Shown piece after piece: positions 7,732 through 31,847 of a stretch of 32,000 nt of DNA. Numbering within the stretch: the stretch's first letter is position 1; each line of letters starts with the position of its first letter. The position numbers were made by a program, and so were the translations under genes. The notes beneath the pieces were generated by a model. That model did not search any database. It was not told the origin of the DNA and worked only from the letters and a program-made list of their open reading frames with translations. Source of the DNA: Candidatus Jordarchaeales archaeon (GTDB taxonomy: Archaea > Asgardarchaeota > Jordiarchaeia > Jordiarchaeales > Freyrarchaeaceae); NCBI GenBank assembly GCA_038858525.1, contig JAWCFL010000017.1, forward strand, positions 8,502-40,501, read 5' to 3'.

Positions 7732-8679
7732 CTACTTCTTTCTTTCCATACTCCCTGGGTTAGCTATTTTAACTGCTCCTCCTATTTGTTTTAGCACCTC
7801 AAGCGCCTCACTAGGTATGACGTATTTTCTGGCATTTTTATCTCCTATTCTGTTAAGAGTTTCCAGATACTGGAGTGCCATCGTTTTTTCGTCCACAGTC
7901 TTAGCCACTGACGTAATCCTTTCCAATGCTTGGGCATAACCTTCAGCCCGGAGAATCGTCGCTTGCTTGCGCCCCTCAGCTCTTATGCTCAGTGCTTTCC
8001 GCTTTGCTTCTGCCTTCGTGATCATCGCTTGCTTTTCTCCCTCAGCGATAAGTATGGCCGATTCCCTTTTTCCGTTCGCCTCAGTCACAATAGCCCTCCT
8101 AACTCGTTCCGCCTCCATTTGCCGTATCATCGCATCAAGTACTGCTGTTGGAGGCAGAATCTCCCTGATCTCGACCCCCGTAATTTTAACCCCCCATCTT
8201 CCAGTAACCTCGTCAAGCTTTTCCTGAAGAACTGTGTTTATGTGCTCCCTCTCGGCAAGTATTTGGTCTAAGTTTATGTCACCTACAACTGACCGGAGAG
8301 TTGTCTGGGCGATTCCTACCGCTGCAAGTCTCCAGTTTGCAACCCTAATGACTGAGTCAAGCGGAGAAACCACCTTGTGGTATATTATAACGTCTATGTC
8401 TACAGGTGCATTATCCTTAGAAATGCATCGTTGATGAGGGACATCAAAATAATCCTCTCTCAAGTCCACCTTTACCATTCTGTCAATGAATGGAATTACA
8501 AAAATGATTCCCGGCCCCTTCTCCTTCGGAAGCACTCTTCCCAGCCTAAAAATGACGCCTCTCTCATACTCTCGTAGCACTCTTAACCCGCTGAAAAGAA
8601 CAATCAAAATGAAAACAATAACCACAATTAGAGTGGTAATAACTGACGACATATCCATCTGAAGCGGTAACAAAGCCAT
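7732..8679 (-). CDS. SPFH/band-7 stomatin-like membrane protein
   Basis: N-terminal TM helix, ERGVIFRLGR, GPGIIFVIPFID, Q..ISKDN..V, WGVKITGVEIREI, coiled coil AERVRRA..EA.G. Confidence 0.92.
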   Translation of the reverse strand: MALLPLQMDMSSVITTLIVVIVFILIVLFSGLRVLREYERGVIFRLGRVLPKEKGPGIIFVIPFIDRMVKVDLREDYFDVPHQRCISKDNAPVDIDVIIYHKVVSPLDSVIRVANWRLAAVGIAQTTLRSVVGDINLDQILAEREHINTVLQEKLDEVTGRWGVKITGVEIREILPPTAVLDAMIRQMEAERVRRAIVTEANGKRESAILIAEGEKQAMITKAEAKRKALSIRAEGRKQATILRAEGYAQALERITSVAKTVDEKTMALQYLETLNRIGDKNARKYVIPSEALEVLKQIGGAVKIANPGSMERKK

Positions 8680-27656: not shown

Positions 27657-28310
27657 TTGGTGGTTCAAGTGGAAACCGCGGGGTCATGGAGAACGAAGAA
27701 GGCGCATTTGACTGAACAGGCATGTGAACTCCTGTTTCACGTGTCCGCCTTAAAGTTCGGCTCATTTAAACTAACTTCCGGTAAGTCATCACCTTTCTAC
27801 ATCGATTTGAGAATCGTTCCGTCATACCCTGAAGTTTTCGATAAAATAACTGATATGTATGTGCTACTGATCAAGAATGAAGCTGATGAGTTTGACAGGG
27901 TTGCCGGAGTGCCGACGGCAGGACTACCAATAGCGACGCTGGTAAGTTACAAGCTGAGAGCTCCCCTCCTTTACGTTAGGAAAACCGCCAAAAATCATGG
28001 GACGCAACGTGCAGTAGAAGGGGTTCTTAACGACAAAGACCGGGTTCTGCTTATTGATGACCTTGCAACGACTGGCTCAAGCCTTCTAGATGCAGCTCGA
28101 GCAATAAGGTCTCAGGGAGGAATAGTAGCGCACGCAGTAGTACTAATTGATAGAGAGCAAGGTTGCGTCAGCAATCTTTCAAGCAATGGTATAAAACTCC
28201 ACTACCTTATGAAGGTCTCACAGCTCCTCGAAACACTCTACAGAAAGGGGCTAATAACGCATTCAGAATATCAGAGCTCCATAGAATATATTAAACATGA
28301 GCAAATCTAA
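27657..28310 (+). CDS. pyrE: Orotate phosphoribosyltransferase
   Basis: FKLTSGKSSPFYIDLR, YVRK..K.HG, PRPP loop VLLIDDLATTGSS. Confidence 0.95.
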   Translation: MVVQVETAGSWRTKKAHLTEQACELLFHVSALKFGSFKLTSGKSSPFYIDLRIVPSYPEVFDKITDMYVLLIKNEADEFDRVAGVPTAGLPIATLVSYKLRAPLLYVRKTAKNHGTQRAVEGVLNDKDRVLLIDDLATTGSSLLDAARAIRSQGGIVAHAVVLIDREQGCVSNLSSNGIKLHYLMKVSQLLETLYRKGLITHSEYQSSIEYIKHEQI

Positions 28311-28458
28311 AAATTGCAAATCAAGCAGAAAGGCGTTCATATAAAGGGTCTCACTCCGTGATTACAGTAACTTTTATCTTTACGGTGTTGTCGCTGAACT
28401 ACGTTACTCTATTAACAAGTTAGCCGTTAATGTTTTGAGAGAATATTTATATTTCTCT

Positions 28459-28482
28459 TTTTTCTAAAAAAAATTAGAAAAA
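28459..28482. promoter_or_regulatory. Perfect 9-bp inverted repeat between TATA box and ATG (candidate operator)
   Basis: TTTTTCTAA-AAAAAA-TTAGAAAAA ends on the A of the start codon; TTTATATT lies at 28446-28453. Confidence 0.4.
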
Positions 28483-29594
28483 TGTCTTCGAGAGTTTCGG
28501 AGCGTGTGAAGTTGCCTCTTGGGATGATCGTAGTTCGGTGGGATAACCGTCTCGGGGCCGTGCTGGAAGCGAAACACCCACCTCAGCTCAGAGTAACAGA
28601 GGACCAGATTATGAAGATCTATACTGCTCACGCCATGTCTATTGGGGAAGCGCCCGCAGGTTTTCTCTCGCTCAGGGTGGGAGAACTAAACGTTGCATCC
28701 TACTATGGTGGATGGGACATAAATTACTACGTGGCGCTCCTTTTAAACCCGGACGAAGAAGCGGACATCTACGAGGACGGATTAGCTGAAGTCGCGTCTC
28801 ACATCTTTTCCAAGCTTGAAGATGACGCCTATAAGGAAGACCTTGAGATGCTTTTCAATAAGCTTACGCGATTCCCCTCATTAACCGAAGAGCAGAAAAT
28901 GGCCGTGGTCCTATCTGACCCTCTCAGAATGTCCCTCTTTGAGAGAATGACTGAAGAAGGAAGCTCAACACTCTCAGATCTCGAAGTTTGGTTAAAGCAT
29001 AAATTCGAGCTTAAATCCGTAGAACTTCACTCTCTCCTCACTCCTCTAGTCAAGAACGGGCTAATAACCCTTCGGTGGGTGGAAGGTCTCCCCAGTCAGT
29101 GTGCCTTCCTTGTCAGGGACGTCTTCATAGCGAGGGTTCCAGCGCGAGCCATAGTCAAAAAAGCCCAATCAGGCGAGTGGGGGGCTGAAGCTTCATCCGA
29201 CTACCTTGACGAAGTAAAAGACTTCTTCAGAAACTACGCGGTTTCACCTGAAGACGTGGAAAACATAACTAAAATCCTTGCTGACCCTGACGTGTACGAC
29301 GTTCTAGTGCTCCTCAGAGAGGACGTTTACACCATAGACAAGTTAGCGGAGCGCCTCGAAAAAAAGAAGTCCGACATTACTCACATAGTAAAGCAATTAA
29401 AAGACTTAGACTTCGTGACGGAAGTAACAATAAACGGCGAAAAGCATGTCGCCCTCAAAACGGACGCCAAAGTAATAACATTCTTCCCTGAATACATGGT
29501 CGACCAGATAGCTCTCCAGTACAACGACCAGATAAAACCACCAAGAATGCTCTTATGGCATCTCAAAGCATTACGTGACAGCTACTTTATGTAA
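28482..29594 (+). CDS. Longin/uDENN-like domain + two winged-helix domains (NPRL2-like architecture)
   Basis: N-terminal MIVVRWDNRLGAVLEAKHP resembles the uDENN/NPRL2 beta1-beta2 motif. Two wHTH-like units: LSDPLRMSLFERM..L..L..LVKNGLI and LADPDVYDVLVLL..LAERL..I..L.DLDFV. Confidence 0.6.
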   Translation: MSSRVSERVKLPLGMIVVRWDNRLGAVLEAKHPPQLRVTEDQIMKIYTAHAMSIGEAPAGFLSLRVGELNVASYYGGWDINYYVALLLNPDEEADIYEDGLAEVASHIFSKLEDDAYKEDLEMLFNKLTRFPSLTEEQKMAVVLSDPLRMSLFERMTEEGSSTLSDLEVWLKHKFELKSVELHSLLTPLVKNGLITLRWVEGLPSQCAFLVRDVFIARVPARAIVKKAQSGEWGAEASSDYLDEVKDFFRNYAVSPEDVENITKILADPDVYDVLVLLREDVYTIDKLAERLEKKKSDITHIVKQLKDLDFVTEVTINGEKHVALKTDAKVITFFPEYMVDQIALQYNDQIKPPRMLLWHLKALRDSYFM

Positions 29595-29629
29595 CCTCTC
29601 CTCAAAAAACTATTTTCGGGAGATCCGCT

Positions 29630-30484
29630 GTGATAAGAAACATTGAAATCCTCGATTCAAATGGCAGATTAATGTTCATGAAAAAGTATGGAGTAAGCGG
29701 CATATCAGATGAGGTCTTCGACGACTTCATAGTAAACCTTGCGAAAACAATATCCCGAGCGAACCTGGATGGGGCAGTCGAGTACATGAACCTTAAGAGG
29801 ACACGCCTATATTATAGTAACGTAGACAAAATGGTCTTCATTTTTGAAGCAGACAAAAACGATGACCTCAATGAGATGAAAACAAAAATGAGAAACATAA
29901 TCCACCAGTTTACAGCAGACTACAGCGGCGTAATACAAAACTGGAATGGAGCCTCGTCAGCCTTCGAGTCCTTTAACGAAAAGGTAGACGAGCTAACCAC
30001 AACTCTCCTGAAGCTCTCCCTTATAGGCTTCAGTGGAGTAGGAAAAACCACTATACTCAAACTGGTCAGAGAAGAAGAACTGCCAAGAGAACATATACCA
30101 ACCATAGGAGTAGGCATAAAAGGCGTTAAAGGAGCCATGATAGGAAACACCCAGCTCGTATGTTGGGACCTCGCAGGGCAGGAAAGATTCAAAATGACGT
30201 GGGACAAATTTATTAAAGCCTCATCCCTAATAGTGATAGTTACGGATTCAACGCTGGAAAACGCGGTGAAGTCACGCTTCTTCGTAAGACTCATAAAAGA
30301 AGAAGAGCCAGAAGCAAACGTAGTAGCACTAGCCAACAAGCAAGACCTTCCAAACGCCCTTCCCCCAGAAAAAGTAGAAGAAATACTTGGAGTAAAAACA
30401 TATGGCTTCGTAGCAATAGACCCAATGAATAGGTCAAAGTTCTTCGAAATAATTAGAAGTACGGTCATGGGAATAACTGGATAG
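29630..30484 (+). CDS. Longin-domain / Arf-like small GTPase fusion
   Basis: N-terminal MIRNIEILDSNGRLMF (sigma-adaptin/sedlin-like longin start). G1 GFSGVGKT, G2 PTIG, G3 WDLAGQ, G4 NKQD. Confidence 0.85.
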   Translation: MIRNIEILDSNGRLMFMKKYGVSGISDEVFDDFIVNLAKTISRANLDGAVEYMNLKRTRLYYSNVDKMVFIFEADKNDDLNEMKTKMRNIIHQFTADYSGVIQNWNGASSAFESFNEKVDELTTTLLKLSLIGFSGVGKTTILKLVREEELPREHIPTIGVGIKGVKGAMIGNTQLVCWDLAGQERFKMTWDKFIKASSLIVIVTDSTLENAVKSRFFVRLIKEEEPEANVVALANKQDLPNALPPEKVEEILGVKTYGFVAIDPMNRSKFFEIIRSTVMGITG

Positions 30485-30503
30485 GATGGGAGGGATAATA
30501 AAA

Positions 30504-30824
30504 ATGGGGCTAATGGAAAAAGTAAAAGTTTTCCTGAAAAGACTCACTGGTGCACCCCCACCAATACCAAAACCACCAATAACTGCAGAGGAAGAAGAAG
30601 AGATAAATAACTTAAAAAAAGCACTAGAGGAACTTAAAGCCAAAAAAGAAGAAATTAACTTGGAACTTAAAAAACTGGACGCTGATTTCTTGCTCGGAAA
30701 AATTGACGCAAGAAAAAGGGACCAAAACTACATAAAGCTAATGCGAGAAACAATGAAAATAAACAGAGAAATCGCTACAATCCGCCAAAGAATAATAAGC
30801 CTCGGAGGAGTAATAGAAATATAA
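30504..30824 (+). CDS. Small coiled-coil protein with ESCRT-I steadiness-box-like helical hairpin
   Basis: Basic amphipathic N-terminal helix, APPPIPKPP, coiled coil, then INLELKKLDADFLLGKID...YIKLMRE. ATG at 30504 follows GGAGG. Confidence 0.55.
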   Translation: MGLMEKVKVFLKRLTGAPPPIPKPPITAEEEEEINNLKKALEELKAKKEEINLELKKLDADFLLGKIDARKRDQNYIKLMRETMKINREIATIRQRIISLGGVIEI

Positions 30825-30894
30825 AAAAAGACTTCATAACGGAACTTACTGCGCAGATAGTCCTCCAAAGAACGATTCCAATAGCTACTAGGAA

Positions 30895-30923
30895 TTTTTT
30901 CTTTCTCACTTTTCTGTTTCTTT
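30895..30923 (+). terminator. Candidate U-rich archaeal terminator of the 28482-30824 unit
   Basis: TTTTTTCTTTCTCACTTTTCTGTTTCTTT about 70 nt after the stop. Confidence 0.35.
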
Positions 30924-31292
30924 AAATTTCCCTCAGTAACTCAATTTATAGTAGACCTTTAGAAACTTCAAGTTTTGACTACAAATCTAAGCTGGATCGC
31001 TTAGGTTTTTGTTTGTCTTAAATACCTAGGAGCATCAATTATGCCCGTATATACTAGTGATTTAAAAGCTTTAAGTGGATGAGTATTTTTCAAAGTGCGA
31101 ATATGTTTTTGAAGGAGATTAGATAAGTGTAAATTGTGTTGAGCGTGCTGAAAAGGGGGAATACGAAAGCTCGTTCACTTTGAAAGCTTGCATGAAAAGA
31201 GAAAAACATGGGTTAAAACATATTAATTGCAAAGCAGTGGAGAACTAAAACTGAAACAAAAACATAGAGAAAAGGAAGGGGGCTTGCAAGAA

Positions 31293-31847
31293 TCACTCCC
31301 TTATAATTCCTTTCTCCGTTAGAACCTCCATCACCCTATCCACAGCCACAAAGATATCCTCTTCGCGTTTAGCACCAGTTATAACCGCCTTCCCCGACCC
31401 GAAAAGCAAAATAACTACCTTAGGATTATGCATGCGGTAGATCAGGCCGGGGAACTGCTCCGGCTCATAAAGTGTATTTTCTAGAAGGAAGGCTGCTTCT
31501 TCAAGGTTTAATTCGACGCCTAAGTTGGCTGATGCCACTATGTTTTGCACTTGGATAATCGGCTCGTTTTTTATGTCTATTCCTACCTCTCTAAGGCTTT
31601 CAACGATTTTCTTGACGGCTTTTACAGCGTCTTTCTCCGACTTGCTACCTGTACAAACCATTTTTCCTGAGTTAAATATTAGCGTTGCCGTTTTGGGCTG
31701 TTCAAGCCTCAGGACGAGTCCAGGGAACTGGTCCGGGTCAAACTCGGTGTTCGGCAGCCTTTCAGCTATCAAGTTCAAGTCTAATCTTTGATTCAGGATG
31801 ACGGAGGCTACGACGTTTTCAATGTGTATTGATTTTGCCTTCGGCAT
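31293..31847 (-). CDS. tbp: TATA-box-binding protein
   Basis: Two repeats: ENVVAS..F(D/E)P(D/E)QFPGL..R...PK...LIF.SGK.V.TG.K and QNIVAS. Confidence 0.98.
   Translation of the reverse strand: MPKAKSIHIENVVASVILNQRLDLNLIAERLPNTEFDPDQFPGLVLRLEQPKTATLIFNSGKMVCTGSKSEKDAVKAVKKIVESLREVGIDIKNEPIIQVQNIVASANLGVELNLEEAAFLLENTLYEPEQFPGLIYRMHNPKVVILLFGSGKAVITGAKREEDIFVAVDRVMEVLTEKGIIRE

Follow-up and report, generated by a model that had tools for sequence, protein, structure and literature searches.

The window analyzed here, a 32,000-nt stretch spanning positions 8,502 to 40,501 of contig JAWCFL010000017.1 (GCA_038858525.1), comes from a Jordarchaeales (Asgard) assembly of 2.09 Mb and 92.7% completeness and carries a three-gene operon that is a real, conserved small-GTPase module, whose link to the endosomal sorting complex required for transport I (ESCRT-I) is unproven. 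On balance, we favor the view that the products of the three genes, here termed A, B, and C, work as one Asgard small-GTPase signaling module, in which B would be the switch, A its longin-platform partner, and C a membrane adaptor. NPRL2-like proteins and longin-GTPase fusions are already known from Asgard archaea; what appears unreported is their linkage in an operon.

The three genes run in the same direction on the plus strand, as gene A (28482-29594; 370 aa), gene B (29630-30484; 284 aa, with a GTG start at the position where its relatives begin M-I-R), and gene C (30504-30824; 106 aa). Genes A and B are taken from the listing of open reading frames (ORFs); for C, the longest ORF is 30486-30824 (112 aa), and its start is placed at 30504 because the third gene of relatives begins at a conserved M-G, which leaves a B–C gap of 19 nt beside an A–B gap of 35 nt. 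The first-pass annotation of this DNA had described three co-oriented genes with gaps of exactly these sizes, and the ORFs together with the conserved M-G start bear this out. Because full-length homologues exist for each of the three, they are real genes and not chance ORFs. In what follows, G000 denotes the genome carrying the window, f-numbers are anonymous genome-family labels, and L-numbers are locus labels.

Gene B encodes an N-terminal longin domain (aa 1–124; 29630-30001, plus strand), delimited by profile comparison with the Protein Data Bank (PDB) and by model topology, followed by an Arf-like GTPase domain (aa 125–284; 30002-30484, plus strand), delimited by Pfam, by its G motifs, and by VIA. 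Pfam Arf matches aa 126–257 with an E-value of 7.8e-25 and 87.8 bits (cut-off 22.3), as against 54.9 bits for Ras and 36 bits for Gtr1_RagA; by this last score and by its order of longin then G domain, B is not of the Rag/Gtr type. Its G motifs are G1 GxxGVGKTT, T158, G3 WDLAGQE, and G4 NKQD, and residues G133–T141, T158, G183–Q184, and N236–D239 are invariant across 26 homologues; since the P-loop, T158, WDxxGQ, and NKQD do not vary, B should be an active GTPase. The structural model (predicted local distance difference test score, pLDDT, 89.6) shows an N-terminal beta-beta-alpha-beta-beta-beta-alpha-alpha domain and a G domain, and VIA places the latter at Z 21–22 to Rab6, Arf6, and Arl8. 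A profile of the N-terminus matches AP-2 sigma end to end (E 2.1e-7, aa 1–100 to 1–98), then AP-3 sigma (2.7e-5) and the first longin of MON1 (8.8e-5), and also the mu2 N-terminus, delta-COP, and Bet5, so that the earlier call of a longin-GTPase stands on Pfam, profile, and model alike, and the N-terminus is a longin of the sigma-adaptin/Mon1 type. The Protein Atlas gave this N-terminus a score of 0.76 to one unnamed cluster, which is uninformative. Full-length relatives of B (~283 aa, 42–45% identity) are abundant in Thorarchaeota-labeled and other Asgard records.

The defining feature of Arf proteins is a very N-terminal amphipathic helix (10.1101/2024.02.28.582541); B has no such helix at its extreme N-terminus, where the 124-aa longin stands. 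Between longin and G domain, aa 104–124 (~29939-30001) form a short conserved joining helix, S-x-F-x-x-F-x-x-x-V-D-E-I, and the internal helix just before the G domain (~aa 115–123), with its near-invariant F115, sits at the Arf-helix position before beta1 and might be an internal, switch-coupled helix. An analogy to SRX/SR-beta was considered for B and dropped, as it had come from one homologue with a precomputed SRPRB match and the B protein of the window gave none at E up to 1. Long forms of B (525–663 aa) occur at L034 (619-2337), L039 (766-2349), L041 (736-2343), and L038 (1468-3456); in these, the longin-GTPase is extended by a helical hairpin of TPR/MIT-like type and a low-complexity linker rich in Pro and Lys, and they end in a coiled coil, which in L038 gives a weak CdvA-like match (24.6 bits).

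Gene A belongs to a family present in 313 of 400 Asgard genomes, with full-length matches at 32–42% identity. Its paralogues are numerous in large genomes and few or absent in the family block f8–f13; G000 has one full-length A and one longin-only paralogue, the latter on contig C25. An AlphaFold2 model built from 25 homologues (pLDDT 90.1; predicted template modeling score 0.79) divides A into a longin at aa 14–133 (28521-28880, plus strand), whose topology by DSSP is beta-beta-alpha-beta-beta-beta-alpha-alpha, two winged helices, wH1 at aa 136–220 and wH2 at aa 256–334 (together 28887-29483, plus strand), and two terminal helices. A Foldseek search of the PDB with this model puts GATOR1/SEAC entries in all ten top places (E 2.4e-5 to 2.3e-3), their chains being ~360–460 residues long, by length NPRL2 or NPRL3, and aligned over 320–461 columns; they are followed by ArsR repressors, C9orf72-SMCR8 (6lt0_C, E 9e-3), DENND10, Fuzzy-Inturned, and Mon1-Ccz1. 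VIA likewise ranks GATOR1 chains of 362–370 residues (NPRL2 by length) at the top (Z 11.8–12.0), matching A residues 10–317 to chain residues 5–238; because the root-mean-square deviation (rmsd) over that span is 12–13 Å and the template modeling (TM) score ~0.2, the domain order agrees and the packing is not comparable. For the longin alone, VIA gives Z 11.9 and rmsd 2.9 over 121 residues against 9o5d_D (NPRL2 by its length of 368 residues); no more than ~1.5 Z units separate other longins from the top-ranked GATOR1 chains, with the Lokiarchaeota longin 8yqg at Z 11.3 and VAMP7, Ykt6, and DENND1 at ~10.5. Three Promethearchaeota clusters in the ESM Atlas share the A fold (TM 0.77–0.91).

At the level of sequence the relation is far looser. 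Pfam NPR2 and NPR3 do not match A at E up to 1, and the A family profile, run against all PDB sequences, finds weak winged helix-turn-helix (HTH) matches only and no solved NPRL chain. It is certain, then, that A contains a longin fold, and its NPRL-like domain order is well supported; membership of the NPRL2/NPRL3 family is not supported, since no sequence match exists. The description of A as NPRL2-like in the first-pass annotation therefore survives as to its longin-wH-wH build and its best structural matches, and fails as to Pfam NPR2/NPR3 and an equivalent of the NPRL2 arginine Arg78.

The winged helices of A invite a different reading, in which A would be an ArsR/SmtB-type transcription factor that binds DNA and carries its longin as a sensor, and B would switch this DNA binding through longin contacts, making the operon a transcription circuit and not a membrane module. 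The second winged helix (aa 254–326) matches ArsR, HTH_20, and TrmB models at E ~1e-3 and NCBIfam HTH_metalloreg at 5.7e-7, it superposes on CzrA/SmtB with an rmsd of 1.2–3.3 (CzrA 1.2) at 20–23% identity, and the TATA box of the operon itself is flanked by an inverted repeat. However, these ArsR/TrmB-type matches in Pfam and NCBIfam all fall below the curated cut-offs, and A is acidic (pI 5.06), its wH1 and wH2 carrying net charges of −2 and −5, with family means of −1.8 and −2.3. Conservation is concentrated in the longin domain and the wH1 core and does not extend to the recognition helices and wings, which are not basic either; over the whole chain, the structural matches of A are NPRL2/NPRL3, in which domains of this kind bind proteins. 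Because A is acidic and its recognition helices are unconserved, its winged helices are better seen as protein-binding and DNA binding is unlikely; we accordingly hold the transcription-factor explanation to be unlikely.

Two side observations concern the wider A family. Stand-alone, longin-only A-type genes (126–134 aa) that retain W-D-x3-G are found at L039 (215-595) and L041 (297-686) in f17, where they lie directly 3′ of long B genes, and in G000 at C25:4782-5093 (L075); they are candidates for the second longin of a heterodimeric platform. The large f20 genomes carry five or more full-length A paralogues each, often paired 5.6–7 kb apart (e.g., G162:C32 26287/32092; G232:C17 60176/65898; G146:C46 107733/113779), which suggests tandemly duplicated multi-gene modules around NPRL-like proteins.

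Gene C is a small, predicted helical protein, its helices, hairpin, and coiled coil being read from sequence alone. It would begin with a conserved basic amphipathic helix, M-G-h-h-x-x-h-K-x-h-F-x-R, which is the best-kept part of this family of short stand-alone proteins and which over the first 16 residues of the window protein has a net charge of +3 and a hydrophobic moment (muH) of ~0.48. A Pro-, Lys-, and Thr-rich linker, variable in length, leads to a putative C-terminal coiled-coil hairpin with near-invariant G65 and D73, and the terminal LGG-x-I-E-I is conserved in f1/f2. The family is small, with only 34 clusters among 1.84 billion representatives, nearly all of them stand-alone and 64–202 aa long, and the Protein Atlas returns for C only unnamed archaeal clusters of ~100 aa.

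It has been proposed for C, in the first-pass annotation, that it is a mini ESCRT-I-like protein. In its full form this would make C a free-standing, Vps37-like steadiness-box subunit that joins Vps23 and Vps28, so that the operon would tie the recruitment of ESCRT-I to a GTPase switch. A local hhalign comparison of the C family with the C-termini of 17 Asgard Vps23 proteins gave, over 53 gapless columns, a score of 29.9, E 1.2e-4, and a probability of 55%, which is below the usual acceptance level for coiled-coil-like sequences; none of the 80 controls reached that score, the highest being 16.9 among 40 column shuffles and 25.9 among 40 block shuffles. The distant C-like end of a 687-aa f20 protein itself has a weak Vps23_core match (16.5 bits), free-standing steadiness-box proteins occur in Loki and Thor, Asgards being without a clear Vps37 (PMC9192718), and the order of basic helix, linker, coiled coil, and hairpin in C mirrors Vps37. 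Against this, Pfam searches of ten C family members found coiled-coil noise only, with no SHOCT match and no Vps23_core, Mod_r, or Vps28 match even at E up to 10. The Vps23_core model, searched against G000 and 40 relatives, lands on other genes in 24 of the 41 genomes and never on C. None of the 34 C-family clusters is Vps23-sized. No ESCRT-related gene adjoins the operon, whose neighbors encode an orotate phosphoribosyltransferase (OPRT) and a TATA-binding protein (TBP), and the Vps23 homologue of G000 lies on contig C3 (C3:107752-107886; L051, ORF 1471-2241 on the minus strand; 257 aa), with a UQ_con/UEV domain (6.4e-19) and a Vps23_core match of 24.5–26.2 bits, just under the cut-off. Moreover, the G-x-I...Y pattern of the hairpin is also SHOCT-like, a relative giving a weak SHOCT match, and may be a common hairpin motif. 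The C hairpin is thus suggestively steadiness-box-like in pattern, a lead and not ESCRT-I membership, and we regard a role for C as an ESCRT-I subunit as quite unlikely; of the earlier proposal, the weak likeness of the hairpin stands and the ESCRT-I assignment does not.

Two further observations bear on these searches. Proteins combining UEV and Vps23_core, equivalent to that of G000 and 255–300 aa long, occur in f1, f2, f4, f14, and f33 genomes. In f20, ORFs of 678–704 aa without a Pfam domain (L115 2490-4550, L116 2949-5060, L117 1483-3516) match the C hairpin over their last 70–110 residues (E 1e-10 to 2e-13), one of them with a weak Vps23_core match there; they were considered as B::C fusions and rejected, not being B proteins.

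To follow linkage among the three families, loci were retrieved around the hits of each protein and all their ORFs were scanned with hidden Markov models of A, B, and C. The order A-B-C recurs in all ten other Jordarchaeales genomes with fetched loci (f1, f2) and in two f4 genomes, and in f6 the contig ends within a coiled-coil gene that comes after an A-B pair. C stands directly behind A, with B elsewhere, in three genomes of f26 and one of f3. At greater distance, in f31 (L032), a divergent A overlaps the best B orthologue by 16 nt in ORF coordinates, and in L123, a Thor-type contig, the overlap of a divergent A with B is 4 nt. There, 118 nt beyond the pair, lies the gene for a 203-aa protein in which a long Pro/Ala linker joins an N-terminal helix to a C-like hairpin (domain E against the C profile ~1e-4 to 6e-5); two further contigs share the gene sizes and order of L123, and the divergent A matches the family profile over its full length (E 1e-45 to 6e-50). 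f31 also shows B and C separated by one gene, and a B paralogue followed by a C-like gene (L119, L049). In f17, an A gene precedes a B of 573 aa that matches the C profile over its final 100 residues (E 5e-7; L034), and two divergent A/B pairs are each accompanied by an extra A-type longin-only gene. The evidence for B::C fusion rests on this one locus: the narrow C profile matches no long B protein, and the wider one matches L034 only, not L038, L039, or L041. Three distant C relatives have contexts none of which clearly adds to the linkage, P0154 having an ArsR-type protein as its neighbor and an Arf-like gene at a distance of 1.5 kb, P0160 lying beside unrelated genes, and P0146 ahead of genes of 236 and 362 aa.

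The three families are hence repeatedly linked, in varied arrangements and not universally, and in G000 the pairing is unambiguous since the genome has one full-length A. The synteny across Asgard lineages that the first-pass annotation had named as a check is found, in Jordarchaeales, f4, f26, f3, f31, f17, and Thor-type contigs, and the A proteins of the linked lineages share only ~35% identity. That A, B, and C are mere neighbors, perhaps co-transcribed but acting separately, whose adjacency reflects drift among many longin and GTPase paralogues, is very unlikely: Asgard genomes do hold tens of longin and GTPase genes (PMC10933270), the 2.1-Mb G000 alone having 11 B-type longins, and the linkage is broken in several lineages, but the families stay together in varied orders despite the low identity of A, their genes overlapping at start and stop, lying as divergent pairs, or, in one case, being fused, and Asgard GTPases generally do not lie in operons with longin genes (Tran et al., PMC10933270), so that the linkage is not the background state.

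Sequence signals and RNA libraries bear on whether the genes form one transcription unit. The upstream TATA/palindrome and the downstream T-rich tract claimed earlier can both be read in the sequence. A promoter-like element (28437-28459, plus strand), whose role we infer from archaeal promoter architecture, comprises a TATA-like TTTATAT at 28446-28452, 30–36 nt 5′ of the A ATG, flanked by an imperfect inverted repeat (GAGAGAA at 28437-28443 and TTCTCT at 28453-28458). A candidate archaeal terminator, a T6 run and T-rich tract at 30895-30923 (plus strand), begins ~70 nt 3′ of the C stop. Two metatranscriptome runs from a single sediment study contain sequence near-identical to the operon: one contig (28248-30110) holds the whole of A, the A–B junction, and 480 nt of B, another (29505-29667) bridges the A–B junction, and a third (30185-30775) bridges the B–C junction. 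This material consists of assembled contigs, from which level, strand, and transcript ends cannot be read, and uncovered stretches in runs X15 and X22 carry no meaning; contigs across both junctions are consistent, if weakly, with co-transcription of A, B, and C. A contig from a relative reads through the candidate terminator tract.

Upstream of the operon lies the OPRT-like gene (27657-28310) and downstream, convergent on the minus strand, the TBP gene (31293-31847), both from the ORF listing; a 470-nt non-coding spacer (30825-31292) separates the operon from the latter. A related-strain RNA-library contig spans this spacer with 25 nt deleted at 31060, and another contig departs from the window sequence at 30823, directly after the C stop codon, which together point to strain-to-strain variation downstream of the operon.

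How might such a module work? In the single-module reading, the switch would be B, whose Arf-like GTPase domain has every catalytic motif and follows a sigma-adaptin-type longin of its own, and A would be its dedicated, NPRL2/NPRL3-like longin-platform partner, using its winged helices for protein contacts. A would most likely dock on the longin and/or the G domain of B and thereby tune its nucleotide state or effector output, whether as a platform half with a non-catalytic or co-catalytic role, like NPRL3 and C9orf72, as an exchange factor (GEF), or as a scaffold. Any of these seems likelier than a stand-alone GTPase-activating protein (GAP), given that A lacks an NPRL2-type arginine finger yet has a C9orf72-like W-D-x3-G; without the catalytic arginine of NPRL2, a GATOR1-type GAP mechanism is not implied. 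C would be a small adaptor whose basic amphipathic N-terminal helix holds the complex on the membrane, in place of the Arf-type N-terminal helix that B lacks, and whose C-terminal hairpin may dock on A and/or B. A prediction of the A+B complex (full length, own alignments), run without controls, gave ipSAE values of 0.02 and 0.07, below the mark of 0.32, and counts neither way.

Several observations weigh against this reading. First, the beta4–beta5 loop of A (aa 76–81), the site of NPRL2 Arg78, has no conserved arginine among 25 homologues, the equivalent position having been mapped by motif and secondary structure, a sequence-level test without structural superposition. The invariant G25 is followed by A or T and not by P, so that the GP motif reads G-A/T, and for want of arginine finger and GP alike the NPRL2-type longin GAP mechanism would be unavailable to A alone. 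Second, the longins of A and B show no profile likeness (hhalign probability 1%) and belong to different subfamilies, which leaves the notion of "paralogous longins" unsupported at the sequence level. Third, the linkage has gaps: C occurs alone or as a tandem C-C in f27 and f14, B lies elsewhere in f26, and in the large f20 genomes a GTPase is missing from the 1.5 kb around most A paralogues. Fourth, where the family has W-D, the divergent Thor A reads L-D or F-D. Finally, RNA-library contigs can contain DNA carry-over, and one of them begins at 28248, upstream of the proposed promoter.

Comparison with eukaryotic longin platforms helps to place the operon. Like NPRL2-NPRL3 of GATOR1/SEACIT, a longin-heterodimer GAP for RagA/Gtr1, A has a longin followed by winged-helix-type domains, and B, like the Rag GTPases, itself carries a domain of the longin/roadblock superfamily. 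Unlike GATOR1, A lacks the sequence match, the Arg78 arginine, and the GP, is ~370 aa long without the eukaryotic inserts, and was seen with no DEPDC5-like partner, no search for a DEPDC5-like gene having been made; B in turn is Arf-like and not Rag-like, with an N-terminal longin in place of a C-terminal roadblock. The C9orf72-SMCR8 complex (CSW) offers a second comparison, as its client GTPase is of the Arf family. In 25 A family members W20-D21-x3-G25 is invariant, a family hallmark that continues to P33, and its spacing is that of W33-D34...G38-P39 in C9orf72, residues essential for the Arf GAP activity of C9orf72-SMCR8 (PMC12290439). C9orf72 and NPRL3 also lack an arginine finger, and C9orf72 needs a second longin (PMC12290439). 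The differences are that DENN domains follow the longin there, whereas the A model shows two winged helices and no DENN, that no SMCR8-like arginine-finger longin was identified in the operon, and that Thor A orthologues have L-D or F-D and not W-D. Asgard longins of the FLCN/SMCR8 type with both GP motif and arginine finger have been described, their client GTPases being posed as a question (PMC12290439). As for C, its hairpin has a weak profile likeness to the steadiness-box region of Asgard Vps23, and it shares with Vps37 a basic N-terminal helix ahead of stalk and hairpin; unlike the ESCRT-I heads (Vps23 steadiness box, Vps37 Mod(r)), it has neither a Pfam match nor an ESCRT neighborhood and is short and stand-alone.

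Within the Asgard literature, Liu et al. (10.1101/2020.10.19.343400) report a family with NPRL2 domain organization in most Thor and some Loki genomes, an abundance of NPRL2-like longins, and Rag/Arf-like GTPases fused to longin, and longin-GTPase architectures have been described in MK-D1 (Tran et al. 2024, PMC10933270). A and B appear to belong to these published NPRL2-like and longin-GTPase classes, A being likened to the Liu family by its description there. Neither paper, in the parts accessible, describes these genes as an operon or mentions a third small protein such as C, and no description of the three-gene unit or of family C was found in the literature searched. Liu et al. also present an operon of a LAMTOR1-like roadblock protein, a Rab-like GTPase, and a DENN protein, which is likewise a conserved Asgard three-gene unit of small GTPase, longin/roadblock-superfamily regulator, and small accessory protein; as given there, it differs in having a Rab-like in place of an Arf-like GTPase, DENN in place of longin-wH, and a roadblock in place of a helical hairpin. 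To call the operon the best candidate for an undescribed protein system, as was done at the outset, is therefore an overstatement, the protein classes being already in print and only their operon linkage apparently unreported.

A bolder reading is that the operon is a surviving prokaryotic machine of longin platform, GTPase, and membrane tether, ancestral in kind to GATOR1-Rag or C9orf72-SMCR8-Arf, in which A and the longin of B would form the catalytic platform in cis or in trans and C would be a Vps37-like steadiness-box anchor handing the switch to ESCRT-I (Vps23/Vps28). We consider this a long shot. If true, C would be the third ESCRT-I-type subunit that is "missing" in Asgard archaea, and GTPase signaling would have been tied to ESCRT recruitment before eukaryogenesis.

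Asgard genomes encode tens of eukaryote-like GTPases and longin/roadblock proteins whose regulator-GTPase pairings are largely unassigned, and the lack of operons makes such matching hard (Tran et al., PMC10933270). The operon is a rare matched set of an Arf-like GTPase, an NPRL2/3- and C9orf72-like longin protein, and a candidate membrane adaptor. Because it is kept across lineages and occurs with one full-length A in a 2.1-Mb genome, it is tractable for testing whether longin platforms regulated Arf/Rag-type GTPases before eukaryotes arose. C, through its weak likeness to the steadiness box, gives a concrete lead to an ESCRT-I link, and the operon makes approachable the question of a GAP-versus-GEF logic of longin platforms that predates eukaryotes.

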